IMG/VR virus record: IMGVR_UViG_3300035180_002210
Location: 1-64,000 of that record
Origin: a virus
Direction: 5' to 3' (one strand)
Length of the DNA stretch: 64,000 nucleotides
Shown here: positions 25,645-50,069 of the stretch, piece after piece
Layout of the letters: each line of letters starts with the position of its first letter
Position numbering within the stretch: position 1 is the first letter of the stretch
The notes under the pieces: model-generated
Told to the model about the DNA's origin: nothing
Database searches by the model: none
Seen by the model: only the letters and a program-made list of their open reading frames with translations
Translations under genes and position numbers: made by a program

Positions 25645-25883
25645 ACGTAGATACGGTCCCGATACTTGCAACCATTATTCTTATTGCGACAGCAGCCACG
25701 TTTATACTTGGAATAGGCGCCTATGTTATTCACGGCAGGAAAACGAAGCTGCCATTCACCCACTATGAGAAAGACATTCTGGAAAAGAAAATCCAGAACA
25801 TTCTTTATACCGGCAATAATAAATACCGGACCGAAGAGCTTATAAAATTAATCGGCGAAGAAGTCAGAAAAGCAAAGAAATGA
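25641..25883 (+). CDS. Small membrane protein
   Basis: N-terminal transmembrane helix; overlaps both neighbours. Confidence 0.6.
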   Translation: MNVDTVPILATIILIATAATFILGIGAYVIHGRKTKLPFTHYEKDILEKKIQNILYTGNNKYRTEELIKLIGEEVRKAKK

Positions 25884-28800
25884 AATTCGTAGTTAAATAT
25901 CCGGACTATGAAGGCGGCTTCATTTACAAAGCCGTTGAAGGGTATAATGTTGTTACCAGGGACAATGACCTACATATCATTGACTCCCGGCCCATAAATA
26001 TGCTCAGGAAGGGATTAGACACCCACCGGGGTAAGATTTTACGCTATGACGATAGTACGGTAGAGGTTTTGACAGATCAGGGCGTAAGGACAGCCGACAG
26101 AGAATTATTTAACCGAGTTCTGATTCATAAGTCTATTGCCACCCAGGAACGGCAGGCAGCGGACGAAATTTGGCAGCGAGGCGGCCTGATTAAATCAGTT
26201 CGTAATATGATGACGGTAAAGCCCCCAAAGGTAAAGGACAATACTGTTAAACCGCCATCATCGGGCGGCCTGGCATGGAATGCGAAGGGCGGGCAGAAAC
26301 CCGATCATAAATACATCGAGCGCAGGCCATCACCCACAAGGCCGGATGAATGGGTTTATTTATACCAGCTTCCTAATGGTGAGAAGAAATGGCATGATGA
26401 GAGCGGCCAGGAAATAAGCGAACAGGACGCAAACTCCGCAGCGCAGAACGAGCCGTCAGAAGGCAATTTAACCGGGTATAAGGAAGGTTCGTTCGTTAAG
26501 GTAAACAGCAGAACCGCCAGAGTGAGCGGCGTAGCTGATAATGTAATTTCGGTTCAGTATGATGACGGCAGTGAGGAAATACTTTCTTCCTTCCAGTTGA
26601 ATCCGAAGTTGCAGAAAGTTGGAGCAAACTATTTTGATCCGCAGTCACAACAGAATTATGCAGTTGAAACGATAGGGGACAATGTATTTTTAGGCAGGAG
26701 CCAGAGCGGAGAACTCAGGGCTTTTTTGAAACGGAAGATTTTCAAGCTCAGTGACGAGCAGATACACCCTAAAACAAAGTCACGGCTGGACCCGAACCAC
26801 TACACCCACGACAGCGTTTACAAAACTTATGCTTCTCATTCCCAGGCGCACGGCTATGATGAAATGAGCGACGATGGTTTGAACTATGCAAAAACCACAC
26901 CGGTTGCAGGCGGACAGTGGACTATAAACCGCGAATATGATCCGGCTACAAAGGAATTTACCGTGAGTGTAAACGGGAAAAAGGATTTCAAAATTGACTA
27001 TGAGGGCAAGAACCTTGAAGTTATAGACGCGACGGACACGGACATTATTGCCAAGGACGAAACCGGCGGGATCTGGAATGTTGATAAACGCCTGTACGGC
27101 GATTATTTACGGAAACAGGGGTTGAAGATCCCCGCAGCGGGTGACAATTCAGGGTTGAGCGAAACAGACCAGATATTGAAACACGTTACGGACACCGGCA
27201 GCCAGGGAGATAAAGCAATTTCAAACGCCACCGGCATTCCGTTAAACCGGGTGAAAAAATACCTTGCAGACCTATTGATCGACGGGAAGCTCCGGCACCG
27301 GAACGGGGAGTATTCGACGAAAGAGAAACCGAAAGGACGATGGGTAGCTGATCAGAAGGCGCCAATCGTCAGCGCAGAGGAGCGGGCCAAGGGTGAGCAG
27401 GAGCGGTTGTCCAGGATTAACGATAAGAATGTTGCCAAAAATTCAGATGAGTATAAGACCGGCACTTCTTTATTGGAGAAGGAAGGGTTTAATCTTAACC
27501 CGAATAATGAATTTTACGCATCGAAGCGGGTACGCGCGAACGGCTTAGATTTTGACATCGAGGCCAAGTATAACATGCAAACCGGATTGTGGGAAACCCA
27601 AGTTTCTAACGGCCATTACAAGGAACTGCAAATAGGCAGCAATCCGGATGAAAAATTCAAGATAGCCGATATCACCGGTGACACCGTCAGGTACTATGAC
27701 CATAACGGAAAAATCAATTCAGTTGATTTGAAAGAGCTTGAAGCGATAAACGGCAGAAATGTATTTGAGCCTACCAAGGCGCAGAATGCCAGCCAGAATA
27801 TTGCTATGGGTGATCAGACGGAGATTGTATATGCCAATGGTGAAAAGCACAAGGCAAACTACGCGGTAGTTGAGCTTGACGATATTACCGCCAGCCACGA
27901 CGAGCGGACATTCCTTCCAAACAAGAACTATCCGCAGATGGACGGCCAGAGCACGAACGACCGGGATTATACCAAGAATCTGGACGATCAGCGCATGGTT
28001 CAAAAGGTTGAACAGAACTGGGATAACCGGACTATCAACAACAGCCAGCAGGCGGACCAACATATTATTATTTCACCGGAAAACTTTGTTGTTTCCGGGA
28101 ATAATAGGACGATGAGTGCGAAGTTAGCCAGAGAGAGTAACCCGAAGGCTTGGGAAGCGTTCAAAGAAAAGATGATAGCCGACGCCAGTTATTACGGGCT
28201 GGATCCGGAAGCCATAAAAGGGATGAAGCACCCGTTTTTTGTGAAGATTGACGCCGATACGCCGAAGGATGAGAACGGGAAATACGTGTACCGGAAATCG
28301 GAGCTTGCGAAATTCAATGCCGATGATAAGAAGTCCAAGACCGAAGAAGAAGAGGCCATGACCTACGGGGACGCGATTCAGGGCCGCCCGGAGATCATGG
28401 AGGTACTTGCAGACGCCATGAAGGATAAGGAAACACTTAGCGATATTTTGAACAGCAAAGCGGTTGATACGCAGAAGGCGTTCAGGGATGCCCTATTCCA
28501 ATCCGGGGTAATGCCGCAGCAGGCAGCGAAAAAGTATTTTAATCCGGACGGCAGCTTAACGGATAACGGTAAAATTCTCGTTCGCAGCGTACTCAAAGGG
28601 ACATTCCTCAGCCCGGACACGTATGAACTTTCCACGTCAGAAGGTATGAAAACCTTCGGTGACGCCATCATTGATAATGTTGGAGCGAACTCTATAAACG
28701 CCAGCCTGCACCCTGAATGGAGCCTGCAGAACTACATTAATGATTCAATACGACTTGAAGGGAAATATCAGTACAGCGGGGACTACAAGAAGAGCGGCAG

Positions 28801-30265
28801 CCCGTTTGAGCAGATGTTACGCATGCGGAATATGTTTGATGCACCGCACGACCGCCGGACCGTAGCTTTGAATCTGCTTGCTAAGAAGGGGAAGGAAGTT
28901 TACGGGAAAATTCTGAAAGATTATAACCAGACGGCCAGCACCGAGCAGACCAACAACATGGATAGCATGTTTGGTGAGAACATTACACCCGAAAACCTGT
29001 TTGAATCCGCGGTGATCGACGGGGAGTATAAGGGTAAACCGATATTTACACCGGAGGACCGGAAACTGCTGGATGAATTCAAATTTGAAACCCAGCCGAG
29101 CAAAGGCGGGAAATGGCAGAAACCGAAAGATACGTCAGCGGTTGATAAGGCGTTCAATGAAGCGACCGGGCAGCAGGAGGAAACGCAGCAGGTAGAGAAG
29201 TCGATTGATACCAGTCATAACGCACTTCTCCCGTCAAAGAAGAATCCGCGGGTGAGCCGGTGGCAGAGGATTGAATCAGCAAGTGCAGAATATCAAATTG
29301 GTGATTTTGGACCTATCTATCATCAGTTCAAGAAGAGATCAAAAGAAGCCATTCAGTTCCTTGTTGAAAAGAAGGACGGAGAGGCAATAGGCGCATTATA
29401 TCATCCAGCCATAGGCGATATTGATTTGGTTTGGGGTAAAGAAGGGACTGGAAATAATGATGGATACGGGCTTGCGAAAATTGTTAAATACCATCCGGAA
29501 GTAGTTGAAAATCTTCAGGGAATATTGGAATCTATGCCAATTAAGAGTAAAGGTAAAAATAGAATTCGATTAGAAGATAACAACCATGAAGCGGCTGTGA
29601 GTTTAGAATGGTATGGTAAGGCGAAGACCTGGTTGTTAACCGAGTACCAAAAACAAAAAGCCGCCCGAAGTATGAACGTGGGCGGCGAATCTCAGTTGAG
29701 ACCAGATGAAACGACTACTTCATCTGTAAATCCAGTAAGCAATATAGTGAATGCAGGTGATGAAAGTCAAGAGATTAACAAAGGGATGAACGCAGTAGAT
29801 TTCGCGCTGAAATATCACAAAGACCAGAAATATAACGGTCAGCCGTATGTAGAAGCGCATTTGCAGCCGGTATTTGAAATGAGTAAAACACTTTGGACAG
29901 CCAGCGACAGGAAATTAGACTTTGAAACCTTGGGGAAGGCGGCCTTCCTTCACGATGTAATGGAGGACACCGATGCGACCTATGATCAGGTGAAAGAGCT
30001 TTTCGGACAGGACGCCGCGGATGCCTGCCAGCTGCTTGATACTACTAATAAGACCAAGGACGAGTATTACGCGGGAATAGCTACTTCTCCGTTAGCCAAG
30101 TTAATAAAGGCGGCAGACCGGCTTGTAAATCTGAAATCGCTTGCAGCTCACCCGGACGTTGACTGCGCAGCCTATCTTAAAAATAAATACCGGAATGATC
30201 TTGCATACTATGAGAAGTACGACATTTACCCGGACCTGATTAAACAGGCAGTAGACGAATTATAA
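25880..30265 (+). CDS. Polyvalent protein 1: DdrB-like ParB domain, PBECR-like RNase domain, HD (RelA/SpoT-type) hydrolase
   Basis: YAVVELDDITASHD...RDY...VVSGNNRTM (ParB-like, ~27850-28340); IGDIDLVWG...GYGLAKI...H...WLLT (PBECR-like, ~29300-29650); H..Q...PY..H...LHDVMEDT...KAADRLVNL (HD, ~29790-30260). Confidence 0.8.
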   Translation: MKFVVKYPDYEGGFIYKAVEGYNVVTRDNDLHIIDSRPINMLRKGLDTHRGKILRYDDSTVEVLTDQGVRTADRELFNRVLIHKSIATQERQAADEIWQRGGLIKSVRNMMTVKPPKVKDNTVKPPSSGGLAWNAKGGQKPDHKYIERRPSPTRPDEWVYLYQLPNGEKKWHDESGQEISEQDANSAAQNEPSEGNLTGYKEGSFVKVNSRTARVSGVADNVISVQYDDGSEEILSSFQLNPKLQKVGANYFDPQSQQNYAVETIGDNVFLGRSQSGELRAFLKRKIFKLSDEQIHPKTKSRLDPNHYTHDSVYKTYASHSQAHGYDEMSDDGLNYAKTTPVAGGQWTINREYDPATKEFTVSVNGKKDFKIDYEGKNLEVIDATDTDIIAKDETGGIWNVDKRLYGDYLRKQGLKIPAAGDNSGLSETDQILKHVTDTGSQGDKAISNATGIPLNRVKKYLADLLIDGKLRHRNGEYSTKEKPKGRWVADQKAPIVSAEERAKGEQERLSRINDKNVAKNSDEYKTGTSLLEKEGFNLNPNNEFYASKRVRANGLDFDIEAKYNMQTGLWETQVSNGHYKELQIGSNPDEKFKIADITGDTVRYYDHNGKINSVDLKELEAINGRNVFEPTKAQNASQNIAMGDQTEIVYANGEKHKANYAVVELDDITASHDERTFLPNKNYPQMDGQSTNDRDYTKNLDDQRMVQKVEQNWDNRTINNSQQADQHIIISPENFVVSGNNRTMSAKLARESNPKAWEAFKEKMIADASYYGLDPEAIKGMKHPFFVKIDADTPKDENGKYVYRKSELAKFNADDKKSKTEEEEAMTYGDAIQGRPEIMEVLADAMKDKETLSDILNSKAVDTQKAFRDALFQSGVMPQQAAKKYFNPDGSLTDNGKILVRSVLKGTFLSPDTYELSTSEGMKTFGDAIIDNVGANSINASLHPEWSLQNYINDSIRLEGKYQYSGDYKKSGSPFEQMLRMRNMFDAPHDRRTVALNLLAKKGKEVYGKILKDYNQTASTEQTNNMDSMFGENITPENLFESAVIDGEYKGKPIFTPEDRKLLDEFKFETQPSKGGKWQKPKDTSAVDKAFNEATGQQEETQQVEKSIDTSHNALLPSKKNPRVSRWQRIESASAEYQIGDFGPIYHQFKKRSKEAIQFLVEKKDGEAIGALYHPAIGDIDLVWGKEGTGNNDGYGLAKIVKYHPEVVENLQGILESMPIKSKGKNRIRLEDNNHEAAVSLEWYGKAKTWLLTEYQKQKAARSMNVGGESQLRPDETTTSSVNPVSNIVNAGDESQEINKGMNAVDFALKYHKDQKYNGQPYVEAHLQPVFEMSKTLWTASDRKLDFETLGKAAFLHDVMEDTDATYDQVKELFGQDAADACQLLDTTNKTKDEYYAGIATSPLAKLIKAADRLVNLKSLAAHPDVDCAAYLKNKYRNDLAYYEKYDIYPDLIKQAVDEL
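29649..29735 (-). ncRNA. Candidate ~85-nt structured antisense RNA nested in polyvalent gene 1
   Basis: 8-bp hairpin at 29703-29726; terminator stem GCCGCCC/GGGCGGC at 29660-29686 followed by TTTTTGTTTTT on the minus strand; own promoter. Confidence 0.65.
29741..29770 (-). promoter_or_regulatory. Antisense sigma70 promoter inside the coding sequence
   Basis: TTGACT-18 nt-TATATT on the minus strand. Confidence 0.65.
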
Positions 30266-30299: not shown

Positions 30300-33200
30300 A
30301 TGGATAATCTTGATGATAAATTGAAGGCGGACAAAAACTTTAAGCTACAAGGACGTAAAAGCTTTCAGGGCCTTGATATTGCGGTAGAGAACCGGCCCGG
30401 CAGCATACGCAGCGGGCTTGACAATGACGGGGAGGAATGGGAAACCCGTATGTTTTATGAATATGGATATATCCGCGGCACGCTTGGAGTTGACGGCGAG
30501 CAGGTAGATTGCTATGTGGGTAAAAACGCCGACAGCCAAAAGGTTTTTATCATCCATCAGAAGAATCCGGAAACCGGCAAGTATGATGAGGATAAAGTTA
30601 TGCTTGGGTTCACAGATAAAACACACGCCAGGGACGCCTATTTGGCACACTACGACTCGCATAAGTTCCTTGGTGAAATAACTGAAATGACCATCGACGA
30701 ATTAAAAGAGAAATTGAAAACCAGGAAGGGTAAAATGATTAAGAGCGTATCAATTTTCGGTAAAAAAGTATTGCAGGCGTTCGAGGATATTTTTAAGTCA
30801 GTGAAAGTCCGGGATCTATTGACTATGAATATGTTTGACGCCGCGAATCCGGATGATGAGGTGACAGAGGGTAAAACCGTAGTAAAAAACGGAAAGACTT
30901 ATGAATACCGCCGGAGCCAGAAAAACCCGGGGGTACGCAGATTGTTTTCCACCGAGCAGGACGAACCGGCGCAGCCGGATTTATTCCAGACCGCTCCAAA
31001 GATAGCAGGGCCTACACCGAAGCAGGCAGCGGCCTTGGGTGAGCATGAGCCAGTAGACCAGGCAGCCATGAAGGAGGCCACAAAGAGAACTAAATTATTT
31101 GGCCAGCAAGTAAGTTTATTCGATCAGCAGGAAGAGCCGAAAACTGCAAAAAGCCTTGTAAAAATAACTAATAAAATAACCGGTGAATCTGCAAAACCGG
31201 ATGAAAAAATAACTGACAAGATACCGGAAGAGGAACACCCCGAGACAATAGGTGATGATCTGTTCTCCCAGCCAGCACCCAGCCCGAAAAAGAAAGAGGA
31301 TGAAGAAAACCCGACAATGGCGTTTGGAGCGGAGGCTATTGATAAGAACGTCGTGAAGAAACGGCAGGAAATAAATGCCAAAGCGCTTGAACTTCTTAAA
31401 ACAAAGAAACCTGAAGAAATGACAATGGATGATAAAATAATCCTTGCTCAGTATTCAGGCCGCGGCGGATTGGGCGGAAACACTTTTGACGATATCAGTT
31501 TGAACGAATATTACACCAGGACGCAGGAAGCACAGTTTATTTGGGATATGTTAGGGAAGTTTGGCTTCAAAGGCGGACCGGTACTGGAACCGAGTTCCGG
31601 AGTTGGCGTATTTATCCATACCGCGCCAAAGGACACCATAGTTGACGGCGTAGAGCTTGATAAGACGAGCAGCGCTATTGCTTCCATACTTCACGGGCAA
31701 TTCCACAACATAACGAACCAGAGTTTTGAGCAACATATAAAAGGAAGCGACGGCGGAAAATATGCAGCGGTAGTAGGAAACCCGCCATTCGGGCCGCGCG
31801 GAATGACCTCAGTTGACGATCCGGAAAAGATAGACTTGAACACCTGCCAGGAATATTTCCTTGACCGGGGTATTGACGAACTTGAAGAAGGCGGGTTATT
31901 GGGAATGATTGTTCCCACGGGTATCATGGATAACCAGGTGAATGAATGGCGGCTTTCTCTCAATAAAAAGGCAGACTTTTTAGGCGCAATCAGGATGCCT
32001 ACCGGAGTATTTAAGCATGCAAAGGCTCAGGTAACAACGGATATTGTATTTTTCCGTAAAAGGGATGATGCAGTACGGGACTATCTTGAAAACGTTCCTA
32101 AAGAGGATTTGAAGGGCTTATACGACGCTCAAATTCTTGACGCGGAGTTTATTGCCGGTAACTATTTTGAGAAGAACCCGCAGTACGCCCTTGGAACAAA
32201 GAAGCGCGGGCAATGGGAAGGACAGAGCATTTGGACCGGTGACATAAGCCGGGGTGATCTGGATGAAGTTGGAGCATTACTGAAATTTACGGATCGGGAC
32301 GCGGAATATCAGAAGCTTGGAATCCTCATTGATCGACTGCCGGCAAAAGAGCTTCATGTTGGAGATACCAAAACATTCAACGGGCGCACCTACCGATTGA
32401 ACGAAAACCACCGATGGGAAAGGGTTGATGAAGCGGAGCTGGGTAAAGAATCCCTGCCAAAAGAGCTGCAGGAGAAGCTTGGAATAAAAACAAAAGCAGA
32501 ATTTCAGGCCTTGCAGCGGGACGTAGCGAAAAAGCTTGAACTCACCCGCGAGCAGTTAAATCTTCTGGATGATAAGGTTTTGTCATCGGAGCTGGAAGCG
32601 TACAATGACAAAAACGACTTCCGGGCGGAAATGCTGAAGCACGCTACTTTGTTAGGGCTGGCAGTTAAAAAGTTTCAGATTGATTTACGAAGCGGGGCCA
32701 TTGAAGGAAGCGACGCACAAAAAGAAGCAGCTAAGCTTGCAGGCTTGCTCAATCAGTTCCATGATAAATACGGACACCCGATTAATGATTTGAAACTGAA
32801 ACGGTACTTAGGGCGCACAACCGGAAACCCTATTCTTTATTTGGCCGGGTCCTTTAACGAGGACGGCGGGTTAAGCGCAATTTTTGACGATCCACTGGCT
32901 TACTACGCAGTATACAGGACAAACTACGAAGTGGGTGAGCTTGACAGCAAGAGCATACCGAAAATTTTACAATATCTGGTTGATAACGGGCTTGACACTT
33001 CTTTCGAGTCTATACAGTCCATGTACAGCGGCGGCACCATCGAAGAAAATGAGCTTATCCGTGATGAGAATGTTTTTATTGACGAGAACGGCGGGTATAG
33101 CCCAACGCAGGAGGTTTGTGTAGGTACGGTTTATAATAAACTGGATGCCTGGACAAAAATGCGAAAAGACATCAGCGAAAAATTGTCAACTCCGGCAGGG

Positions 33201-36200
33201 GTAAACGAACCCGAGGGCGAAGGTAAAACGCTTAGCGACGATGAAAAGGAAACCTTGCTACTGAAGGATAAAAAGCTTGAAGATCAGATTTTTGAGATGA
33301 AACGCAGAGCCGGATCTACGGAGTTAACGAATCTTCCGGTATCAATGAAGGACGCAGGAGAATTTTTTGATATTAAGCATTTGAACGAATATTTAAGCGG
33401 GAAACTGGGAGCTAATTTTGTTGGCAACATATCCAGGAATAAAGAAGGCTTTTTTGGTATGGAGGACCAAGGGCTACAGAACACCTATTTGATGTATGCC
33501 ACAAAAGGCGCAGAAGGCCAGGACAAATATGAAAAAGATCAACGGAACCGGTCTATGGAGGCGTATTTCGGTAAGGAAAATCTGAATCCGCCGATGTTTC
33601 TCTTCCTGAATATGCTTAACGGCTTATCGGTTCGCGGCGCAAATAGTCTTGAATTCAAAAAACAGTACGAAGATATTGCGAACAGCTTTGTCAAATACCT
33701 TGATTCAATTGATGAGGCACCGGCCATAACCGATATTTATAACCGGGCTTTTAACGACTTCATACAGAAAAAGTATGATGATTCAGTTATCGAAGGCCTG
33801 AATCACTTTGCTTACGATAAAGTTGTTGCCACCGATAAGGACGGCAAAGAATTTACAGTAAGGGATAAAATAGGCTCCCATGTTTGGGAAGTTGTCCGGC
33901 GCATGTATGACCAAGGGAAGGGTATAATTGCTCACGGCGTCGGTTTAGGAAAGACTGTCACTGCAATTGCGCTGATAGCCTTATCGAAGGCAACGGGCCG
34001 ATGCAAGAAGCCGGTAGTGATCATGCCGAAGTCATTGCAGCTGAATTGGGTAAACGAAATTAACAAGTGGACCGAAGGGAGTAAGATACTTCCGGTTGGA
34101 TTGAAGCAGGTAAACGGAGTCTGGAAGGATTGCAACGCGCAGGAAACTATTTTGCAGCTTCAGCAGATTCAGAACGAGGACTGGGACTATATTCTGATCA
34201 CCAGGGATGACTTTAAACGGATAGATTTCAACCCCGAGACGAAAAAGCGAATGATTAAAGAGATAGCGGATAAATACTATCCGGAAGGTGATGAAATGAC
34301 CAAACTCGATAAGCAGAAGCGCGAAGTGGCTATTCAGCAATTGGCAAAGACCATGCAGAACGATACCGCGTTCGAAAACGTGTTTCTGGAAAATCTTGGG
34401 CTGGATATGATGGTGAGGGACGAGGCCCATGATTGCAAGAACTTACTGCAGGCAGTTCAGACGGATATTAAAGGCATAGGCAATGCCGCCGCGGCGATCA
34501 GCATGCACAACTTTTTTGCATCGAAGATCATACGCGGAGCCAATAACGAAAAGGGCGTATTCTCTATGACGGCAACACCGATTTCTAACAGTCCGCTTGA
34601 AGTGTTTAATATGATGCTGCCGGTTATGGAAAAGGAGCTCGAGGCGATCAATATTAAGACAATGGATGATTTTGTTGAGAAATTTGCAGATCACGGAATG
34701 CGGATGACTGCCGACGCCGATGGTAAGGTAGGAGAAAAAGACATGTTCTCCGGCTGGAAAGTGCCTGACGCGCTAAGGAAGATTTTCTACCGGTTCACCG
34801 ACTTTAAAACAAAGGATGATGTTGAAAGTGTACGGTCAAGCATAAAGTTCCCGAAGGAACGGCCTTCCAATTTATACAGTACGTTAAATGCAGGGCAGGA
34901 ACAATTAAGCGATCATTGTTCGGCAAGGCTGAATTGTTTGAAATACCGTGAGCAGGATCCCAATACTAAAAAGTGGAACCTGAAAGACAGCGTAATGACC
35001 AAGGACATTGAGGAAGAAGTTCTAACCGAGCAGGAGAAGCAGGACGCGGTTCACTACTTCTATAATCAGTTCATACCCACGTATGAGAAATTGAACCGGG
35101 GCCGCAGTCCGGAGGATCCGCCGATTGATGACTGTTTCTTCTCAATTCAGAGCGACCTTATTAAGATCAGCAGCGATTTGGACTGGTACGCCGGGAACCG
35201 CAGCTATTATTCCAAGGATATTGATGAATCGTTTGTTGAGAAATACAATGATTTAGATAAGTATAAACAGTTGACCGAGCATGCTGCAGGGCTTTATAAT
35301 TCGGGCAAGAAGCAGCTCATTTTCGCTATAAATACTACGCTTCACCCGATCATACTTGATAATCTGATAAAGGCCGGGATAAAGCCTTCTGAAATTGCTA
35401 TTGTAAACGGAAAGACGGCAAAGAACGCACAGGCCCGCTCCAAGTTCAGTGAAGGGTTCAACAGCGGCAAGTATAAAGTAATTATCGGTAACTACGCCAC
35501 AATGGGCGAAGGTTTGAATTTTAACAAAGAATGCGCTGCCATCACCCACGTACAACCGGCCTGGAACTATGCACAGATCGAGCAGGGAAATGGCCGGGGA
35601 ATTCGGCAGGGGAATGACCTGGACTTTGTTGATACGTATTACATGCTCACCAAGGGCAGCATCGACACCTTCATGACTGATAAGATCATGAAGAAGGGCG
35701 GCATGGTTTCTAAATTCCTCAAAGGAGAGCTGAGCGAGTGGAACGAAGATGTTCAGCTTGACGGTGACGAAATGCTGGCCGCACGGGCGAAGAACCCGGA
35801 ACGGGCAAGGAAAATTCTGGAAAGAAGGAACGCCGCCATTCAGGAGGCTAAGAAGGAGAAAAACCGGGTAATTAATTTCCAAAAGTTTGATCGGTTGTTT
35901 GAAGTAAAAGCTAAGATGAGTAAGTTTGAGGACCAAAACAGCAAACAGTATAAAATGCTGGAACAGGAACAAAATGAGATCATGGAGCGGTTGAACAACG
36001 ATCCGGAATTCAAGCTGAAAGACCACCTTACTTCAGATCAGAAGCCTATTGTTATCAGGAACCATGACGTAGCAATTCCTGTAGGAAGTGTGGTGAAATA
36101 TTCGAACCACCCGGACGAAGCAAATGAATTTGCGGTATTGACCGACTATACCCCGAGCACGGGACGGGTTCTTTTGACCACGTACAGTTCTGATACAAGG

Positions 36201-37043
36201 GAGATTAAGTCTATGCCGGTTGAATCGTTCATCAGCCAGTACGGATGGACCGTAAAGAAAACGGACCTTGACGTAGCGGGAATGTTCAAAACTTTGGTTG
36301 ATAAGGAGAATCTTATTGATATGGGCATGATTAACGCCATGCCGATAGACGCTTTGAACGCGAACCGGAAACAGTTATTGCAGAATTTACGGGATGTGGA
36401 CTACGCACCCCCATTGATGTATAAAAATATGAATGGTGAAATTAAATTTGATGTAGCCGATGATGTATTTCAGACAATAGAGGAGGACGGCGGGAAGGTC
36501 CTATTCCCGCAGGAATATCCGGATTGGGTTAAGGTTGCCAGCCAGATTATTAAGAGTAAACGGGATGACTCGAAAGCCCGGGGATTTTGCCGAGCGATTT
36601 ACGGCGATAATTGGGAAAAGGAACTTCCGAAAGCGGTTAAGAAGTTGACGAATCCGAAAGCGGAAACAAACACCACACCGCAGGATAAGTTTGAAATACC
36701 GGACTGGAAAGAAGCCAAGTTTAATGTTTTAGTCAAGCAACTTGAAAACGAAGGCTATATTTCACCGTATGACGCTCATAGGGCAGTTAAGGAGAAATCG
36801 GACCGCTTGCCATCGGAATATCTCATGAACCGGATATTGCAGGGCGGATTGAGTAAGAAATACATTGCGGATTATGAAAACGCGGAAAACAAGGAAGAAT
36901 TTCTGCAGCGCAATAACGACCGCATGGAGTCTATAATTGCGCTCTTTGACCACGGTGATGACGAACTGAAAAAATGGCACGACAAATTGAAGCTTGACAA
37001 ATGGTACGGAGATAATAAACATTTAAGCGAGAAAACAGCATGA
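30300..37043 (+). CDS. Polyvalent protein 2: inorganic-pyrophosphatase-like domain, N6-adenine MTase, SNF2 helicase (DarB-like)
   Basis: EN..GSIRSG...YGYIRGT.GVDG..VD...YDEDKVMLGF (iPPase); LEPSSGVG and GNPPF (MTase); AHGVGLGKT, DEAH, TATP and Q.NGRGIRQGN (SNF2). Confidence 0.88.
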   Translation: MDNLDDKLKADKNFKLQGRKSFQGLDIAVENRPGSIRSGLDNDGEEWETRMFYEYGYIRGTLGVDGEQVDCYVGKNADSQKVFIIHQKNPETGKYDEDKVMLGFTDKTHARDAYLAHYDSHKFLGEITEMTIDELKEKLKTRKGKMIKSVSIFGKKVLQAFEDIFKSVKVRDLLTMNMFDAANPDDEVTEGKTVVKNGKTYEYRRSQKNPGVRRLFSTEQDEPAQPDLFQTAPKIAGPTPKQAAALGEHEPVDQAAMKEATKRTKLFGQQVSLFDQQEEPKTAKSLVKITNKITGESAKPDEKITDKIPEEEHPETIGDDLFSQPAPSPKKKEDEENPTMAFGAEAIDKNVVKKRQEINAKALELLKTKKPEEMTMDDKIILAQYSGRGGLGGNTFDDISLNEYYTRTQEAQFIWDMLGKFGFKGGPVLEPSSGVGVFIHTAPKDTIVDGVELDKTSSAIASILHGQFHNITNQSFEQHIKGSDGGKYAAVVGNPPFGPRGMTSVDDPEKIDLNTCQEYFLDRGIDELEEGGLLGMIVPTGIMDNQVNEWRLSLNKKADFLGAIRMPTGVFKHAKAQVTTDIVFFRKRDDAVRDYLENVPKEDLKGLYDAQILDAEFIAGNYFEKNPQYALGTKKRGQWEGQSIWTGDISRGDLDEVGALLKFTDRDAEYQKLGILIDRLPAKELHVGDTKTFNGRTYRLNENHRWERVDEAELGKESLPKELQEKLGIKTKAEFQALQRDVAKKLELTREQLNLLDDKVLSSELEAYNDKNDFRAEMLKHATLLGLAVKKFQIDLRSGAIEGSDAQKEAAKLAGLLNQFHDKYGHPINDLKLKRYLGRTTGNPILYLAGSFNEDGGLSAIFDDPLAYYAVYRTNYEVGELDSKSIPKILQYLVDNGLDTSFESIQSMYSGGTIEENELIRDENVFIDENGGYSPTQEVCVGTVYNKLDAWTKMRKDISEKLSTPAGVNEPEGEGKTLSDDEKETLLLKDKKLEDQIFEMKRRAGSTELTNLPVSMKDAGEFFDIKHLNEYLSGKLGANFVGNISRNKEGFFGMEDQGLQNTYLMYATKGAEGQDKYEKDQRNRSMEAYFGKENLNPPMFLFLNMLNGLSVRGANSLEFKKQYEDIANSFVKYLDSIDEAPAITDIYNRAFNDFIQKKYDDSVIEGLNHFAYDKVVATDKDGKEFTVRDKIGSHVWEVVRRMYDQGKGIIAHGVGLGKTVTAIALIALSKATGRCKKPVVIMPKSLQLNWVNEINKWTEGSKILPVGLKQVNGVWKDCNAQETILQLQQIQNEDWDYILITRDDFKRIDFNPETKKRMIKEIADKYYPEGDEMTKLDKQKREVAIQQLAKTMQNDTAFENVFLENLGLDMMVRDEAHDCKNLLQAVQTDIKGIGNAAAAISMHNFFASKIIRGANNEKGVFSMTATPISNSPLEVFNMMLPVMEKELEAINIKTMDDFVEKFADHGMRMTADADGKVGEKDMFSGWKVPDALRKIFYRFTDFKTKDDVESVRSSIKFPKERPSNLYSTLNAGQEQLSDHCSARLNCLKYREQDPNTKKWNLKDSVMTKDIEEEVLTEQEKQDAVHYFYNQFIPTYEKLNRGRSPEDPPIDDCFFSIQSDLIKISSDLDWYAGNRSYYSKDIDESFVEKYNDLDKYKQLTEHAAGLYNSGKKQLIFAINTTLHPIILDNLIKAGIKPSEIAIVNGKTAKNAQARSKFSEGFNSGKYKVIIGNYATMGEGLNFNKECAAITHVQPAWNYAQIEQGNGRGIRQGNDLDFVDTYYMLTKGSIDTFMTDKIMKKGGMVSKFLKGELSEWNEDVQLDGDEMLAARAKNPERARKILERRNAAIQEAKKEKNRVINFQKFDRLFEVKAKMSKFEDQNSKQYKMLEQEQNEIMERLNNDPEFKLKDHLTSDQKPIVIRNHDVAIPVGSVVKYSNHPDEANEFAVLTDYTPSTGRVLLTTYSSDTREIKSMPVESFISQYGWTVKKTDLDVAGMFKTLVDKENLIDMGMINAMPIDALNANRKQLLQNLRDVDYAPPLMYKNMNGEIKFDVADDVFQTIEEDGGKVLFPQEYPDWVKVASQIIKSKRDDSKARGFCRAIYGDNWEKELPKAVKKLTNPKAETNTTPQDKFEIPDWKEAKFNVLVKQLENEGYISPYDAHRAVKEKSDRLPSEYLMNRILQGGLSKKYIADYENAENKEEFLQRNNDRMESIIALFDHGDDELKKWHDKLKLDKWYGDNKHLSEKTA

Positions 37044-45352: not shown

Positions 45353-46036
45353 ATGCCACTACGCATAACGGATCCCAATTTTACCGATATTATGACCATC
45401 TACGGGTTGGACGCATGGTATTATCATGCGCGGCTTTGCAGTTGTGTAGGCGCTAATAACGGAGTTCCGGATTCAAGTGATGATTGTGAAATGGGATTCA
45501 GGTACAGCGCACCGGAGAAGGTCCGCCTGCAGAGAACGCAGACTACCAAGAAAACGCTTAACACCCCATCCGGAGTAATACCGGACGGGGCCATCACCCT
45601 GACAGTTCCTAAATACTGGAAGAAGAAATTACAGAATGCCTGGGTGACTGCTGCTCATGGTGACGTTTATTCATTGATTGGTAAATCACAGGTAGCAAGG
45701 GATATTTTGAAACGCGGGGTACGCGACCGGATATTCGCGTTTGATATACAGAAAATCCTATCGGTAGCGATAAAAGATACGTTTTATATACAAGGGACTG
45801 ATTTTACCCTGCAAGACCGGACAATAGTCTGGGCGGAGGATAAGGGCCCGGAGGACGGAGCCTTTTATTCGGTTGAGTTTTTATGCAACCAGCAGTACCG
45901 GCAATATGACACGGACGCCTTCGACCGCGGTGGTGACGGCGATGATTTGCCAAAGAGAATTAATGCAGTGATCCGGCAGTACGTAAATCCGGATGATAAC
46001 CCGCTTGACGCGGTAGACACCAAGGAGAATATCTAA
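45353..46036 (+). CDS. Head closure / neck protein
   Basis: A.LCSC...C..G..Y pattern as in Twort-like neck proteins; position. Confidence 0.55.
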   Translation: MPLRITDPNFTDIMTIYGLDAWYYHARLCSCVGANNGVPDSSDDCEMGFRYSAPEKVRLQRTQTTKKTLNTPSGVIPDGAITLTVPKYWKKKLQNAWVTAAHGDVYSLIGKSQVARDILKRGVRDRIFAFDIQKILSVAIKDTFYIQGTDFTLQDRTIVWAEDKGPEDGAFYSVEFLCNQQYRQYDTDAFDRGGDGDDLPKRINAVIRQYVNPDDNPLDAVDTKENI

Positions 46037-49000
46037 TGCAACTATTCAGTAAGGCTATCCAGAACCAGTTTAAGCAGCTCGATCTATTTCACCAGCAAAC
46101 GTCGTTATTCGATCCGCAGCCAGGGCAGGAGAAGGAATTTGCTGAAGGTGACCGGCGGAAGCTTCAAATGGCGAAGAATGGGAAGTTACGTTGGATGAAC
46201 GCGGACGCCGATTCAATGGCCGCAGACCTGAATAAGAAATTTACGGACTACGTAGGCGCGCTGGATGAAACGGAGTTTTGCCTTACAGCCAGACAGTACC
46301 GGGCATATAAAGGGCTGGAGTTTTCCGGCGGGACAACCAAGATACAGAGCCCGGCAGACGCAGCGTATTTGTTTAAGCAGCTCAGGGAAGAAGCAATTGA
46401 ACATGCTTTTGCGGTACATGTGAATAAGGATGGGGATGCGGTAGTACAGCATTTAGGGACAGGGAAGTTTGATGAATCGGTTGTTGACAGGCAAGCACTT
46501 ATATCAATGGCAAAAGACTTCGAATCGAAGGAAATCTATTTTGTTCATAATCACCCCAGCGGGAATTTACAACCGAGCCGTGATGACGCCTATGTATTGG
46601 GGCTGATGCAGAGCGAATTTTCGGGCACCGATACCACGCTGAAGGGTATTATTGTTGATACTTTAGAGAATAAGTTCACTGAGTTCAATCCTCAACAAGG
46701 CTTTACAACAGATTTGATAGCGGAGGCCCCAGAGCAGGAAAGGAGTTATCCCGTACTTGCTTTTTCAAAACAATATTTCTACGCCGATATCTCAATTAAT
46801 AAAAAAATACTCCACCCCGATGATGTAGCGGGGTATATCCAGGCAAGCAGGTTCAGCAGCGGAGAGGTGTACCAATTATTGACGCTGAATATTGCGAATA
46901 AGGTTATTGGGCGCTTTAATCTAACCAAAATGAAATATAGCTATGACCAGGCGAGCCTTGACGAAATAGCCTGGTTAACACTTCATTCCGGAGGCAGTGG
47001 CTGCATATTAATGAGCGGTGAAGAACGACTGCCGGGTGAAGCGCTAAGAGATAAATTAAAGCATTATAGCGTAAATTTACTCGATTATATACGCATATCG
47101 CCAGAAAAAAGAAAATTCACGAGCATGGAGGCAAACGGCTTCTCTTATGATATACCGGCAGGGAATGACAGCCCGACCGGGCAGGATTATTCGAATGCGG
47201 CGGAGCCAGCTACATCCTATAATACCACCAGGAAGGGATATGCTAAATTTGATGCAAACACGGCCAGCCCAGAGGAGCTAAGAAAAATCCCAGTTGAGGA
47301 CCTTACGTTCAGCGATAAGAAAAAGCTTTATCCCCGATTAATAGAAGCATACAAAAAAGCTAAAGAAGAGCTTAGTGCCTTATGGAAAAATCAGGGGAAA
47401 GGCGGCGAATGGTTTATCCCGGAAGCAGCAACATTTTTGCCGGCAAAATTTTTCCATTATCCGGTGAGCAAAGCGGAGAATAAGGAATTGTATGATAAAA
47501 TTCAGGCTGCCAAGGGGAGATATGAGGCTTTGAAGTCTGTTTATGATAAAATATATGACAATTTACTTGTTGAGATTGACGATAAAGGGAAAATTTCTGT
47601 TAATTGTGATAACGAGTTTGATTGCGGCAGTTACGAAAAGGGTGTTGCCTTTTTGCAAAAGCTCGAACCATCACTGTATGAAGCTTTTATGAAGGATAAG
47701 AGCAGACCATCCACGGGACTATTCGGGAAAAGTGTAGTTATATTCGGGAAATCGTTAAAACCTACGATGCCATCTGTTAGTAAAGCACCGGCCACCCAAC
47801 CGGGACAGGAGAAGCCCGGCCACAAATATGTGAAGCGTGAACGGGATCAGAAACACCCCGGGAAATACATTTATTATTATAAAATGCCGAACGGGCAGAT
47901 TGAGGCGAGCAATGACGCCAACGGCCCGGATAAATCACCGGCGGCACCGGATAATGCAGTACCAGGCAATACCGCGCATGATACACAGGCAGAAAACTTT
48001 ACTCAGGACCAAGGCGACGGCCAGCAGCAAACACAGAACAATGATCAGCAGCAGGGAGCGGCGCAGGATCCGGCAGCAGCAGCGGAAGCAAAGAAGAATG
48101 CCGATGATCCGGACTATGTTGACTACGCCAGAATCAAAAAGGTTTATGGCCTACGCCAGCCGGAGATTCAGGTAATTGAAAACCTTGCAACAGACTACAT
48201 GCGAAAGGCGAAATTCCAGAAAGGAAGATTCCTTGAGGATGTTGATGCTATTTGTGAGGAAGGCGGGATAAAAGGAGTTTTGCCGAGCATTCGCTTTGGT
48301 GAGTTCGCCGTAAAGGGCAAAGGGAGTATTTTTGACAAAGCGCTGAGGAATATTGCCAAGGGAAGGCCGGAAAAGAACTATGAGTTTTCGGATATCCTAC
48401 GGACAACGATTGTGATTAACAGCCCGAAGCAGGCAAAGAAGCTGAGAAGTTTGCTGGAAAAGAAAGGGTATGAATTTTTAGAAGATGAAAATTTGTACGA
48501 TAGTACCACACCCGGATATAAACATATTGCCTGGAAGGTCAGGCGGGGCAAGGACGATCCGTTGGTGAAAGAAATTCTACTAATGCGGCCTAACATGCTG
48601 GAAGCAAAATTCGGGCTGGGACACGGGCTTTATGACGTTGAGAAGCATATTATTAAACTTATGCCGAAGATTGAAAGGCACAAAGACCTTGCAGGGTTTC
48701 TAACCGGGGTGAAAGAAATTTTAGGTTCGCACATGAGCCAGTTTTATGAAGACGCATATTACCGGGATTTAGAGGAAGAGGGCGGAGCTGCGCTTGATGA
48801 TCATGCCGGTTCAACTGTGAAAGAACCATCTTCGCGTTCTTCATATTCGACAGAGACGGACCCGAGTGAAACGAACGCTACAAGCAATTCTTCGAGTTTG
48901 CCTTCTGCGGCTAAAGACTTATCGAGCAGCACAATGACATCACTGATGGGCTTTTTGAATGACATGTGGCAGCCGATTTCAGCTAATTTATCTACTTCTT

Positions 49001-49158
49001 CAGGAGTGAGTCCGAGGCGCTCTGCCAAGGCAGCAAAGATAGATTCTATTTTCTCTTTCATCGTTGAACCATTGGGTAAGTTGCATAAAAAATACAGTCA
49101 GAATATAATCAATAAGAGTACCAGATTCAAGCGGTTCTTTAGTACCAAGGTGAAATAA
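46036..49158 (+). CDS. Polyvalent protein 3: JAB/RadC-like domains and RelA/SpoT-like nucleotidyltransferase
   Basis: E...FVHNHPSG.LQPS.DD (intact JAB) followed by a degenerate copy; VK...SIFDK...SDILRTTI...GYKH...EILL...GH.LYD (RelA/SpoT-like, ~48300-48770). Confidence 0.75.
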   Translation: MQLFSKAIQNQFKQLDLFHQQTSLFDPQPGQEKEFAEGDRRKLQMAKNGKLRWMNADADSMAADLNKKFTDYVGALDETEFCLTARQYRAYKGLEFSGGTTKIQSPADAAYLFKQLREEAIEHAFAVHVNKDGDAVVQHLGTGKFDESVVDRQALISMAKDFESKEIYFVHNHPSGNLQPSRDDAYVLGLMQSEFSGTDTTLKGIIVDTLENKFTEFNPQQGFTTDLIAEAPEQERSYPVLAFSKQYFYADISINKKILHPDDVAGYIQASRFSSGEVYQLLTLNIANKVIGRFNLTKMKYSYDQASLDEIAWLTLHSGGSGCILMSGEERLPGEALRDKLKHYSVNLLDYIRISPEKRKFTSMEANGFSYDIPAGNDSPTGQDYSNAAEPATSYNTTRKGYAKFDANTASPEELRKIPVEDLTFSDKKKLYPRLIEAYKKAKEELSALWKNQGKGGEWFIPEAATFLPAKFFHYPVSKAENKELYDKIQAAKGRYEALKSVYDKIYDNLLVEIDDKGKISVNCDNEFDCGSYEKGVAFLQKLEPSLYEAFMKDKSRPSTGLFGKSVVIFGKSLKPTMPSVSKAPATQPGQEKPGHKYVKRERDQKHPGKYIYYYKMPNGQIEASNDANGPDKSPAAPDNAVPGNTAHDTQAENFTQDQGDGQQQTQNNDQQQGAAQDPAAAAEAKKNADDPDYVDYARIKKVYGLRQPEIQVIENLATDYMRKAKFQKGRFLEDVDAICEEGGIKGVLPSIRFGEFAVKGKGSIFDKALRNIAKGRPEKNYEFSDILRTTIVINSPKQAKKLRSLLEKKGYEFLEDENLYDSTTPGYKHIAWKVRRGKDDPLVKEILLMRPNMLEAKFGLGHGLYDVEKHIIKLMPKIERHKDLAGFLTGVKEILGSHMSQFYEDAYYRDLEEEGGAALDDHAGSTVKEPSSRSSYSTETDPSETNATSNSSSLPSAAKDLSSSTMTSLMGFLNDMWQPISANLSTSSGVSPRRSAKAAKIDSIFSFIVEPLGKLHKKYSQNIINKSTRFKRFFSTKVK
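48801..49061 (-). CDS. 86-aa acidic protein nested antisense in the 3' end of polyvalent gene 3
   Basis: Natural amphipathic sequence (MKEKIESIFAALAERLGLTPEEVDKLAE...), while the sense frame here reads as a Ser-rich shadow; has its own promoter. Confidence 0.7.
   Translation of the reverse strand: MKEKIESIFAALAERLGLTPEEVDKLAEIGCHMSFKKPISDVIVLLDKSLAAEGKLEELLVAFVSLGSVSVEYEEREDGSFTVEPA
49102..49130 (-). promoter_or_regulatory. Antisense sigma70 promoter inside the coding sequence
   Basis: TTGAAT-17 nt-TATATT, about 40 nt upstream of ATG 49061. Confidence 0.7.
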
Positions 49159-50069
49159 TGGCCGGTCATTTCGAGATCAAATATGATTACGATTTGTCAC
49201 CGCTGCGCGATTTCTTTATCATGGTTAAGAACCGGCTGGAAACACCGCAGAGTAATCTTGTAGAGGCCGTGCAGGCGGCGGGGAACATGGTAATGAATGA
49301 ATGGATAAGCGCGGCAAACAACAGGTTCCGCCATTCGAACGGAGGCTACGCTCAGGGGATTGTACAGGGGGTTAAATATCCGTTTCAGGATAATCCACTA
49401 CACTTTGTTATTGAGCATACCAAAAAATACGCGACCTGGATTGAGCAGGGATATGATCCGTTTGATATGAAGAAAATGCTGCAGACGAGCAACAAGGTTC
49501 GTGTTTCCAAGGAAGGGCACAAATACTTAGTTATTCCCTTTCGCCACGGTACTCCCGGGTCCAAGACGATGGAGGCCATGCCGAAAGAAATTTACCAGCA
49601 GGCCAGAGAGCTTAAACAGAGTACCATCACCGGCCGGTTTCTGGAAGGCAGCCAGCAGGGCGCGAAGGGTTACAATGACGCGCAATTACTCAGGCAGTAT
49701 AATCCTAAAAAGGTTGAGCGTAACCGTTATAAATGGGGTGAGCAGCTTACGGACAAAGGAGCGGACGGTAAATACAGCAGATATGACGGTATGACCAGGT
49801 TTAACCGGAATGTAGCGAACGTGCGGGCCATAAACGGCGTACAGGCACCGACAGGGAAGTTTGCACTCAATTCCACAACCGAAGATTCACCGAATTACAG
49901 CTCATATTTCACTTTCAGGGTGATGAGCGAAATTTCGGAAGGCTGGATTAACCCGGGCGCGCCGGGGATGTACATATTGAAAGATGTGATCGAGCGGACA
50001 TCGGAGCGGGTTTACCAGATGATGGCCCGGGGGATAAAGCTTGATATGCGGGAAATGGGTTTTTCATAA
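49158..50069 (+). CDS. Virion morphogenesis / neck protein
   Basis: YA.WIEQG..PFDMK...YLVIPFRH...Y.TFR.MS...GWI.PG. Confidence 0.65.
   Translation: MAGHFEIKYDYDLSPLRDFFIMVKNRLETPQSNLVEAVQAAGNMVMNEWISAANNRFRHSNGGYAQGIVQGVKYPFQDNPLHFVIEHTKKYATWIEQGYDPFDMKKMLQTSNKVRVSKEGHKYLVIPFRHGTPGSKTMEAMPKEIYQQARELKQSTITGRFLEGSQQGAKGYNDAQLLRQYNPKKVERNRYKWGEQLTDKGADGKYSRYDGMTRFNRNVANVRAINGVQAPTGKFALNSTTEDSPNYSSYFTFRVMSEISEGWINPGAPGMYILKDVIERTSERVYQMMARGIKLDMREMGFS

Follow-up and report, generated by a model that had tools for sequence, protein, structure and literature searches.

At the 3' end of a gene for a phage polyvalent protein, the question arises whether the opposite strand also encodes a protein and, if so, whether that protein restrains the RelA/SpoT-like domain encoded immediately before this stretch. 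Such an overprinted antitoxin gene had been proposed in the first-pass annotation of the window (the whole stretch of viral DNA that was analysed, 64,000 nt). The features under discussion are as follows:

46036..49158, plus strand: polyvalent-protein gene, 1040 aa, from the ORF listing
46345..46596, plus strand: RadC-like JAB domain, aa 104-187 (Pfam PF04002, phrog_10276)
48160..48792, plus strand: RelA/SpoT (RSH)-like nucleotidyltransferase-fold domain, residues 10-220 of the 341-aa segment that starts at 48133
48793..48900, plus strand: predicted disordered Ser/Thr-rich linker of the plus frame (segment residues 221-256; pLDDT <50)
48904..49098, plus strand: two predicted tail helices of the plus frame (segment residues 258-322; pLDDT 67-87)
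49062..49158, plus strand: last 32 plus codons and stop, which would contain the 5' leader of the minus gene
48801..49061, minus strand: candidate overprinted gene, 86 aa, ATG start, from the ORF listing; acidic (pI 4.5), four predicted helices
49102..49130, minus strand: promoter-like TTGAAT-17-TATATT, 40 nt before the minus ATG, 9/12 matches
49158..50069, plus strand: downstream gene, 303 aa (phrog_16819), whose ATG shares one base with the plus stop

The plus protein carries an N-terminal RadC/JAB domain (Pfam E 9.8e-13; 48.5 bits against a cut-off of 22.1), long linkers, the RelA/SpoT-like fold domain and the Ser/Thr-rich tail. Its neighbours of 1461 and 2247 aa contain ddrB-ParB, PBECR1, HD_4 (weak), InPase, Eco57I methylase and SNF2 domains. 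The locus therefore has the marks of a polyvalent protein: several unrelated conflict-type domains (RadC/JAB and the RSH-like fold) in one polypeptide, similar neighbours and a virus record. Nearly all genes of the operon lie on the plus strand, and the minus gene would be transcribed against them. The downstream gene has a homologue with the identical one-base overlap in the related phage lineage L083; in lineage L002 the homologue overlaps the plus gene by 8 nt.

The upstream domain was analysed at the level of fold and of sequence family. The AlphaFold2 model of the 341-aa segment reached a pLDDT of 79.2 and a pTM of 0.73, with the domain block at pLDDT 80-97. Foldseek matched the domain best to CapRel 7ztb (E 3.8e-4) and then to SpoT, RelSeq and RelA (up to E 5e-2), with further matches to the Rel proteins of S. 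aureus, M. tuberculosis and B. subtilis (probability 1.00, 148-247 columns). Pfam RelA_SpoT (PF04607) gave no match in the window protein at E<=0.01 or even at E<=1; four of 12 members of the family matched weakly, the best of them at E 0.019. Hence the RelA/SpoT-like domain named in the first-pass annotation holds at fold level, where the model points to an RSH synthetase (Pol-beta-like nucleotidyltransferase) fold, but misses the Pfam threshold. Judged by eye, it may carry motifs like those of the family (D..R, GYK and an E-rich strand). The last 341 aa have 64 relatives at E<=0.001 in a representative library, and the domain module was found in varied architectures, i.e. in RadC-, LPD3- and LPD1-bearing proteins and in short forms of 409-548 aa.

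The minus ORF is nested within the last 120 codons of the plus gene, and the ORF listing bore out the earlier observation that both strands stay open throughout the overlap. From the coordinates, third codon positions coincide in the two frames and the first position of a plus codon lies opposite the second position of a minus codon. The minus stop falls ~3 codons past the last confident domain helix (184-220 of the segment), just beyond the nucleotidyltransferase domain as had been stated. The disordered linker faces the C-terminal helix of the minus protein, and the part of the tail helices up to 49061 carries minus residues 1-52 on the opposite strand. AlphaFold2 with six sequences predicted for the minus protein helices at residues 2-16, 20-35, 39-49 and 53-77 (pLDDT 77.3, pTM 0.63), and pI was 4.2-4.7 in all six. 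This protein had no match in Pfam, PADLOC or PHROG, its fold had none in PDB (best E 2.2) or BFVD (best E 1.3), and no relative of it was found outside the mirrored, antisense context.

DNA was compared in five lineages including the window; they fall into three deep groups, and the statistical cells cannot be treated as independent. L082 and L085 are one distinct gene; the other distinct phage genes with DNA are those of L002, L083 and L084. Identity of the plus gene to that of the window is 64% in L002 and 38-39% in L082/L085, L083 and L084. In all four of these genes the minus ORF contained 0 stops and began with an ATG at the same codon, so that the interruption in close homologues which the first-pass annotation had set as its counter-evidence was not seen. 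Given the plus protein and its codon usage, the probability of an open frame with this ATG was 0.112 for L002, 0.265 for L082, 0.230 for L083 and 0.228 for L084 (product over L002, L082 and L083 ~0.007). Only 3 of the 70 overlap columns are identical in the five lineages (control, 8/186), and the third base that completes the ATG is one of them. ORF and start are also kept in a fragment from a bacterial genome, G121. Here a ~440-nt species-specific insertion between conserved genes contains this segment alone; the minus ORF is uninterrupted (83-96 aa), with a protein called from it on 16 contigs, while the plus frame is broken by 2 stops and the domain is absent.

The reading that we prefer, tentatively and with a probability of about 0.4, is that the minus ORF is a real gene acting as cognate inhibitor of the RelA/SpoT-like domain. 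The gene would be overprinted antisense on the 3' end of the phage polyvalent gene, with third codon positions coinciding. The plus frame of the overlap would stay open and be translated up to the start of the next gene, evolving as a low-constraint 'shadow', and the minus frame would give rise to a conserved, acidic product, ~80-90 aa long, for which four helices are predicted. This protein may bind the toxin-type nucleotidyltransferase domain and keep it inactive in the producing cell, as an immunity protein or antitoxin, and the polyvalent protein would be packaged and delivered without its inhibitor. Expression, binding, toxicity of the domain and its neutralisation are steps that we infer. 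In the phages the minus gene is always linked to the RelA/SpoT/CapRel-like domain, which ends a few codons before the minus stop, and therefore inhibition of that domain is its most likely job.

Another job for the product is possible, if somewhat doubtful: the gene may be real, conserved and overprinted, but encode a late-operon regulator, an anti-defence protein or a helper of cargo assembly or packaging rather than a neutraliser of the domain. Such a gene would be supported just as well by all of the protein-level evidence for selection on the minus frame, given below, by the stand-alone copy in G121 and by the confident prediction of a small helical fold. The minus protein is unlike any known antitoxin, and the phage has other possible counter-activities, since the co-encoded HD_4-like hydrolase and pyrophosphatase (InPase) domains could counter an alarmone synthetase without an antitoxin. 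Against this, the minus gene was seen attached to this one domain module only, across architectures, as is expected of a cognate partner. The structure co-prediction of domain and minus protein, which had been suggested as a check, scored 0.32 against 0.01 for the best of three controls; it was graded as weak support, and in this band wrong predictions outnumber right ones unless the pairing had a high prior probability. Of 80 solved complexes, 58 reached the mark used for these scores, as did 2 of 110 mismatched pairs, but at a score of 0.60 or less it was reached by just 7 of the 80 solved complexes, together with both passing mismatches. The runs agreed in at least 84% of contacts, with a partner pLDDT of at least 77. 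As an extension of the inhibitor reading, toxin domain and antisense-nested antidote might be inseparable and move as one cassette from one phage polyvalent protein to another, with at least one bacterium (G121) having captured the antidote alone, possibly as protection against injected toxin; this we regard as rather unlikely.

Less probable still, and in our view unlikely, is that there is no minus gene, the ORF being a non-functional antisense shadow that stays open through a tail poor in Tyr, His and Gln and whose apparent conservation mirrors a weakly constrained plus tail. The length of the minus ORF and its promoter-like site are indeed no more than chance would give. When the plus gene was shuffled synonymously, the overlap stretch was free of stops in 246 of 1000 shuffles and the longest open stretch had at least 98 codons in 714 of 1000. 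Other open stretches of 95, 83 and 71 codons occur in the same antisense frame of the plus gene, and a neighbouring gene contains a 257-aa antisense ORF. Tyr, His and Gln, the sole plus residues able to yield minus stops, make up 2.4% of the tail against 9.4% of the domain in 22 family members, and length and openness are therefore largely by-products of composition; the probability of a stop-free frame given the plus protein was 0.28-0.88 per lineage. The promoter proposed in the first-pass annotation is present 40 nt upstream of the ATG, but such sites are no more numerous (6) than in shuffles (6.8 +/- 2.8). Both hexamers are identical in L002, and L083 and L084 have TTGAAA or TTGCAA, 17 nt and TACCTT at the aligned place, comparisons that are confounded by plus coding. 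The plus tail is alignable across the 22 family members, its helices are predicted at pLDDT 67-87, and nested antisense genes have a low prior.

Third codon positions also spoke for the absence of a gene, being at baseline in most comparisons. Pooled pSN/pSS pointed towards a gene (0.54 [0.31-0.82] vs 0.81 [0.68-0.96]), but this signal stems from the single pair L083-L084, in which minus nonsynonymous changes were 5/26 of third-position changes overall vs 13/55 in the control. Between the window and L002 they were 8/27 in the overlap vs 19/68 in the control, with a pSN/pSS of 1.00. In deep pairs the minus amino acid was kept in 59-64% of two-fold boxes, which is flat against the baseline of 63-65%. 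Leu and Arg codons gave a different result. Switches between their codon boxes are informative because they are synonymous in the plus frame yet alter the second position of the minus codon, and such switches were suppressed: the box was unchanged in 15 of 16 conserved Leu/Arg columns of the overlap vs 43 of 71 outside (one-sided Fisher p=0.008).

The frame under selection was then assessed on replaced codons, by a test that, like the Leu/Arg test, was devised in the course of the analysis. Over codons that differ between lineages in their first two bases, the excess was taken as the mean BLOSUM62 score minus that of random pairing. In the domain the plus frame had an excess of +0.93 to +1.63 (p=0.0005) and the antisense frame one of -0.06 to -0.58. 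In the overlap the plus values (+0.32, -0.19 and -0.15) were not significant, whereas those of the minus frame were +0.85 (p=0.006), +0.38 (p=0.02) and +0.31 (p=0.039). Columns 288-335 gave +0.81 and +0.64 for minus (p=0.0015 each) and -0.20 and -0.15 for plus. When all six frames of the overlap were scored, only that of the minus ORF showed an excess (+0.70; plus frame -0.09), and in two control runs the true coding frame had +0.63 and +0.73 and the same antisense frame -0.29 and -0.65. These comparisons support the view that in the overlap the plus frame behaves as a non-coding frame and the minus frame like true coding frames. In G121 the stand-alone copy, compared with the phages, yielded +0.39 for minus and -0.33 for plus.

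The signal starts and stops with the minus ORF. In 48-column sliding windows the minus excess was negative in 25 of 25 domain windows, reached its maximum (+0.65) over minus residues 1-48 and dropped to -0.59 beyond the minus ATG; these windows overlap, and the count of '0 of 70' obtained from them amounts to just ~5 independent windows. Within 48904..49061 conservative replacements occur in the minus frame and not in the plus frame, and the plus frame of the linker at 48793..48900 lacks such a signal. In the last 32 plus codons, past the minus ATG, the plus excess was just +0.20 and the minus excess -0.62, and the third-position difference was 0.39 and 0.22 vs 0.5-0.6 elsewhere.

A mere shadow fits poorly with these results. 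It does not predict what was observed, namely that plus first codon positions are more conserved than second ones, giving conservative replacements in the antisense frame only and within the ORF limits only, in a frame that is negative in the domain. The suppressed Leu/Arg box switches, the conserved third base of the ATG and the G121 insertion, which retains the minus ORF though the plus frame is broken, point the same way. The minus ORF is thus probably a real protein-coding gene. The case for purifying selection draws mainly on one kind of test, because the third-position tests were flat or mixed. The earlier description of the plus tail as a shadow of a selected minus frame gains from the replaced-codon and Leu/Arg tests and from the conservation of ORF and ATG, but not clearly from third positions; likewise, the comparison of selection in both frames favoured minus by excess, but not by the pSN/pSS between the window and L002. 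A regulatory antisense RNA exerting type I/III-like control of the polyvalent gene, with an incidental ORF, is very improbable: the promoter-like site conserved between the window and L002 and the lower synonymous divergence in the 32 codons upstream of the minus ATG would suit it, but it leaves the frame-specific conservative replacements and the conserved ATG and ORF unexplained, and promoter-like sites are at chance level.

The putative inhibitor can be compared with known systems. CapRel, a fused tRNA pyrophosphokinase, bears its own C-terminal antitoxin part. It and the toxSAS modules (FaRel/ATfaRel and others) likewise have the RelA/SpoT synthetase fold, and inactivation of the toxin domain by a small partner protein is a concept shared by toxSAS (PMC7229694, PMC11782079) and the proposal made here. 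Unlike toxSAS antitoxins, which are separate co-directional genes or fused domains, the candidate is encoded antisense, entirely within the 3' end of the toxin gene. It shares no sequence or fold likeness with them, nor does it belong to a known antitoxin family or fold (Pfam, PADLOC, PDB, BFVD). The domain itself, a candidate toxin below the Pfam threshold, is part of a 1040-aa phage polyvalent protein. In polymorphic toxins, which are delivered and multidomain, the C-terminal toxin module and a small cognate immunity gene are transferred together from one architecture to another; that gene lies downstream on the same strand, whereas the candidate lies inside the toxin gene on the other strand. 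RelA/SpoT domains in phage polyvalent proteins were described by Iyer et al. 2017 (PMC5512222), who proposed host shut-down by alarmone synthesis; as here, these are multidomain phage proteins adjoining others of the same type, and the accessible part of that paper mentions neither a partner or immunity gene nor an antisense gene for the domain. Embedded antisense genes of E. coli O157:H7 and Pseudomonas aeruginosa are, as far as the accessible accounts go, likewise fully nested ORFs, for which the case is made by conservation and by purifying selection on the alternate frame. Those examples are backed by ribosome profiling of cultured strains, and most of the genes are young; the present one, from an uncultured phage known from sequence alone, is kept down to 38% host-gene identity, and its embedded frame, rather than the annotated one, carries the selection signal. 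No precedent for an antisense-nested protein antitoxin was found in the literature.

If the minus gene is real, it would be a well-conserved, evolution-supported antisense overlapping gene of a phage, in a rare and disputed class, in which selection acts on the hidden frame and the annotated one is carried along. The replaced-codon test, which asks in which frame the replacements are conservative and uses six-frame and sliding-window controls, is simple and can be reused for such cases. If its product is the cognate inhibitor, the locus would represent a new toxin-immunity architecture, in which the antidote gene lies within the toxin gene on its other strand, beyond the reach of standard gene callers, and it would offer a way to study how phages cope with toxin-type domains in the polyvalent proteins that they package.

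The open reading frame on the minus strand (hereafter the minus ORF) inside the 3' end of the polyvalent-protein gene is, with a probability of about 0.75, a real gene. The features concerned, in a virus record of ~72 kb in total of which the window is a part, are the following.

25880..30265, plus strand: upstream polyvalent gene, with ddrB-ParB, PBECR1 and a weak, sub-threshold HD_4 (RelA/SpoT-type hydrolase)
30300..37043, plus strand: upstream polyvalent gene, 2247 aa, with N-terminal InPase, Eco57I-type methylase and SNF2 helicase
46036..49158, plus strand: polyvalent ORF, 1040 aa
46345..46596, plus strand: RadC/JAB domain, aa 104-187 of the 1040-aa protein (Pfam E 9.8e-13)
48801..49061, minus strand: minus ORF, 86 aa

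AlphaFold2 modelling of the last 341 residues of the plus protein gave a confident domain (block pLDDT 80-97, residues 10-220) and a tail that was disordered at residues 221-256 and then formed helices at 258-288 and 294-322 (pLDDT 67-87). The PDB structures closest to the domain model were the tRNA pyrophosphokinase CapRel (E 3.8e-4), SpoT, RelSeq and RelA. The window's plus protein did not reach Pfam RelA_SpoT, to which 4/12 relatives gave a weak match (best E 0.019). Thus, the name RelA/SpoT-like, used in the first-pass annotation, is valid for the fold but not for family membership. Together with the products of the two upstream genes, the plus protein makes up a set of three polyvalent proteins of the type that Iyer et al. 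2017 (PMC5512222) described; RelA/SpoT domains in phage polyvalent proteins were already reported there.

The minus protein, predicted by AlphaFold2 from six minus-frame sequences, consists of four helices (pLDDT 77.3, pTM 0.63), and all six sequences are acidic. Neither PDB nor BFVD contained a match to this fold. When the minus protein was modelled in complex with the domain, a score of 0.32 was obtained versus 0.01 for the best control; at least 84% of the contacts agreed between runs and the partner pLDDT was at least 77. Of 80 solved complexes 58 attained the mark used, as did 2 of 110 mismatches, and scores of 0.60 or less at the mark comprised only 7 of the 80 solved complexes together with both passing mismatches. 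The proposed pairing with the domain stands out from the controls, within the band graded as weak support. A real minus gene with a function other than that of an antidote to the domain is a fairly plausible alternative, a little less likely than the antidote role: the weak grade leaves room for it, and the distance from the controls speaks against it.

By length and openness, the minus ORF is unremarkable on its own. According to the coordinates, the two frames have their third codon positions in common, and position 1 of the plus gene lies opposite position 2 of the minus ORF. In this register the antisense frame of the plus gene contains open stretches of 98, 95, 83 and 71 codons; among 1000 synonymous shuffles of the plus gene, the overlap was stop-free in 246 and the longest open stretch reached at least 98 codons in 714, which rules out length as evidence. 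A minus stop in this register requires a Tyr, His or Gln codon in the plus frame after a suitable third base, and these residues are scarce in the tail (at-risk residues 2.4% vs 9.4% in the domain, 22 family members). The openness of both frames was also discarded as evidence for either one, since the probability of an open minus frame given the plus protein was 0.28-0.88, and that of an open plus frame given the minus protein 0.61-0.69 per lineage. The TTGAAT-17-TATATT promoter-like site, a promoter in the first-pass annotation, does exist (49130..49102), but such sites occur at chance density (6 observed vs 6.8 +/- 2.8), so that it has no value as evidence for a minus gene. Another antisense ORF, of 257 aa (35253..36026, minus strand), lies nested within the gene for the 2247-aa polyvalent protein; unlike the ORF at 48801..49061, its register is fully aligned, with minus position 3 opposite plus position 1.

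Searched exhaustively with HMMER, the 341-aa segment retrieved 64 proteins at E<=0.001, and the best 16 relatives, excluding the window's own protein, extend into the tail. DNA was compared for four other distinct phage genes: L002 (64% identity to the window), L083 and L084 (38-39%), and L082, whose gene is identical in L085. We had to consider that the minus frame might be interrupted in homologs; instead, all four genes lacked stops inside the ORF in the same antisense frame and carried an ATG at the same codon, with probabilities given the plus protein of 0.112, 0.265, 0.230 and 0.228. Only 3/70 columns of the overlap are invariant across the five lineages (8/186 in the control), and the ATG-making third base is among them. 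The phage collection gave no match to the region (blastn), the 86-aa protein (tblastn) or the 341-aa C-terminal segment (tblastn); the plasmid collection gave none to the 341-aa segment, the 86-aa protein retrieved nothing but itself in the word-index protein search, and two protein-atlas searches yielded no usable match. PDB sequence-profile searches returned low-complexity matches only. No relative was found in viral contigs scanned with the window segment, A1 or the family proteins P0005, P0009 and P0011; scans with A2 and with a back-translated motif pattern each gave a single record only. Genome contigs scanned with the family protein P0002 gave 80 loci, with the C-terminal module covered only in L002; the remainder match the N-terminal LPD3 region, no further than residue 306. 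When contigs from four DNA runs were compared with 46036-50069, the overlap contained no variant letters and the one difference was a 1-base insertion at 47243 in one run, which left population variation out of the analysis.

One important question is which frame is under selection. Codons differing between lineages in their first two bases were taken from an alignment made from the plus translations, which is therefore not biased to the minus frame, and the replaced residues were scored in each frame with BLOSUM62.

Excess (mean BLOSUM62 score of replaced residues minus random pairing) in each frame
Domain: plus frame +0.93 to +1.63 (p=0.0005); antisense frame -0.06 to -0.58
Whole overlap, plus frame: +0.32, -0.19, -0.15 (not significant)
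Whole overlap, antisense frame: +0.85 (p=0.006), +0.38 (p=0.02), +0.31 (p=0.039)
Overlap at minus residues 1-48: plus frame -0.20, -0.15; antisense frame +0.81, +0.64 (p=0.0015 each)

In a sliding window, the minus excess was below zero in 25/25 domain windows, rose up to +0.65 over the ORF and fell to -0.59 past its ATG. When all six frames were scored, the overlap showed an excess in the antisense frame of the minus ORF alone (+0.70), and two control runs showed it in the plus frame (+0.63, +0.73; same antisense frame -0.29, -0.65). This overturned the idea, drawn from the alignment of the tail across the family, that only the plus frame is coding. Leu/Arg codon-box switches that are synonymous in the plus frame change the second position of the minus frame, and the box was kept in 15/16 overlap columns vs 43/71 (one-sided p=0.008). 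Pooled pSN/pSS was 0.54 vs 0.81 in the control (bootstrap P=0.04). In these selection statistics the cells are not independent, the deep groups number only three and two tests were designed after the data had been seen.

The third-position tests were weak. Minus nonsynonymous third-position changes between the window and L002 amounted to 8/27 vs 19/68 in the control, with pSN/pSS of 1.00. For L083-L084 the ratio was 0.17, a value equally low in 0/70 overlapping control windows, and the signal was smaller with all minus nonsynonymous third-position changes (5/26 vs 13/55). At two-fold boxes of deep pairs, the amino acid was kept in 61-70% (plus) and 59-64% (minus) of cases in the overlap, against a baseline of 63-65%; in the domain, 88% were kept in the plus frame. 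Conservation of Ser codon boxes was rejected as evidence and attributed to ancestry, because it was equally high in the control (7/8, 8/8, 9/9). Purifying selection on the minus frame, as expected initially, is thus borne out by the replaced codons and Leu/Arg boxes but hardly by third positions. A shadow ORF with no minus gene behind it, which would fit the third-position results and the shuffles, is unlikely in view of the six-frame test; an antisense RNA, set beside an excess measured on amino acids, is very improbable.

A real minus gene is also consistent with a copy standing alone in a bacterial genome, G121. The family profile, searched against 301 genomes from the class to which L002's host belongs, gave this one extra match (2/301 in total); further searches matched 1/401 genomes of the phylum and 1/12 of G121's family and order, and the segment was not found in the 11 other genomes of its family.

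L090 5653..6164 (G121:C103): species-specific insertion of ~440 nt

The insertion is flanked by a histidine ammonia-lyase-like gene and by an outer-membrane-protein gene, and the gap between the two genes is 514 nt vs 73 nt in the relative G046. Homology of the segment is confined to the tail, the domain being absent; the plus frame has two stops, and the minus ORF is intact (83-96 aa). This ORF is a called gene on 16 contigs, and the word-index protein search with it returned only 99-100% copies. Between G121 and the phages, replaced codons scored +0.39 in the minus frame and -0.33 in the plus frame. Upstream of the ORF, the insertion includes ~140 nt with no recognised origin.

If the minus ORF is a gene, the plus frame over it would be a translated, low-constraint read-through. 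The polyvalent-gene stop and the next gene's ATG overlap by one base in the window (49156..49160) and in L083 (2967..2971), and by 8 nt in L002; the downstream gene is conserved too. Retention of the one-base overlap in the 38%-identical L083 suggests conserved translational coupling of the polyvalent gene to the next gene. The plus frame may be kept open for this coupling; its probability of being open given the minus protein is only 0.61-0.69 per lineage. Over the final 31-32 plus codons (49062..49158 in the window, with the corresponding stretch of L002, L083 and L084), third-position divergence was 0.39 and 0.22 vs 0.5-0.6 elsewhere. This hints at nucleotide-level constraint, such as that of a leader or promoter on the minus strand, or of the region where the next gene starts.

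Both embedded antisense genes and toxSAS-antitoxin pairs are already known. An antisense-nested protein antitoxin was not found in the literature searched, that on toxSAS included. The minus ORF is constantly linked to a fold of toxin type that is shuffled among architectures, and the cell in which a toxin is packaged has to tolerate it. From this, and from the weakly graded complex score (0.32), we tentatively infer that the minus protein may be an antidote to the RelA/SpoT-like domain. The HD and pyrophosphatase domains of the upstream polyvalent proteins could use the products of this domain as substrates.
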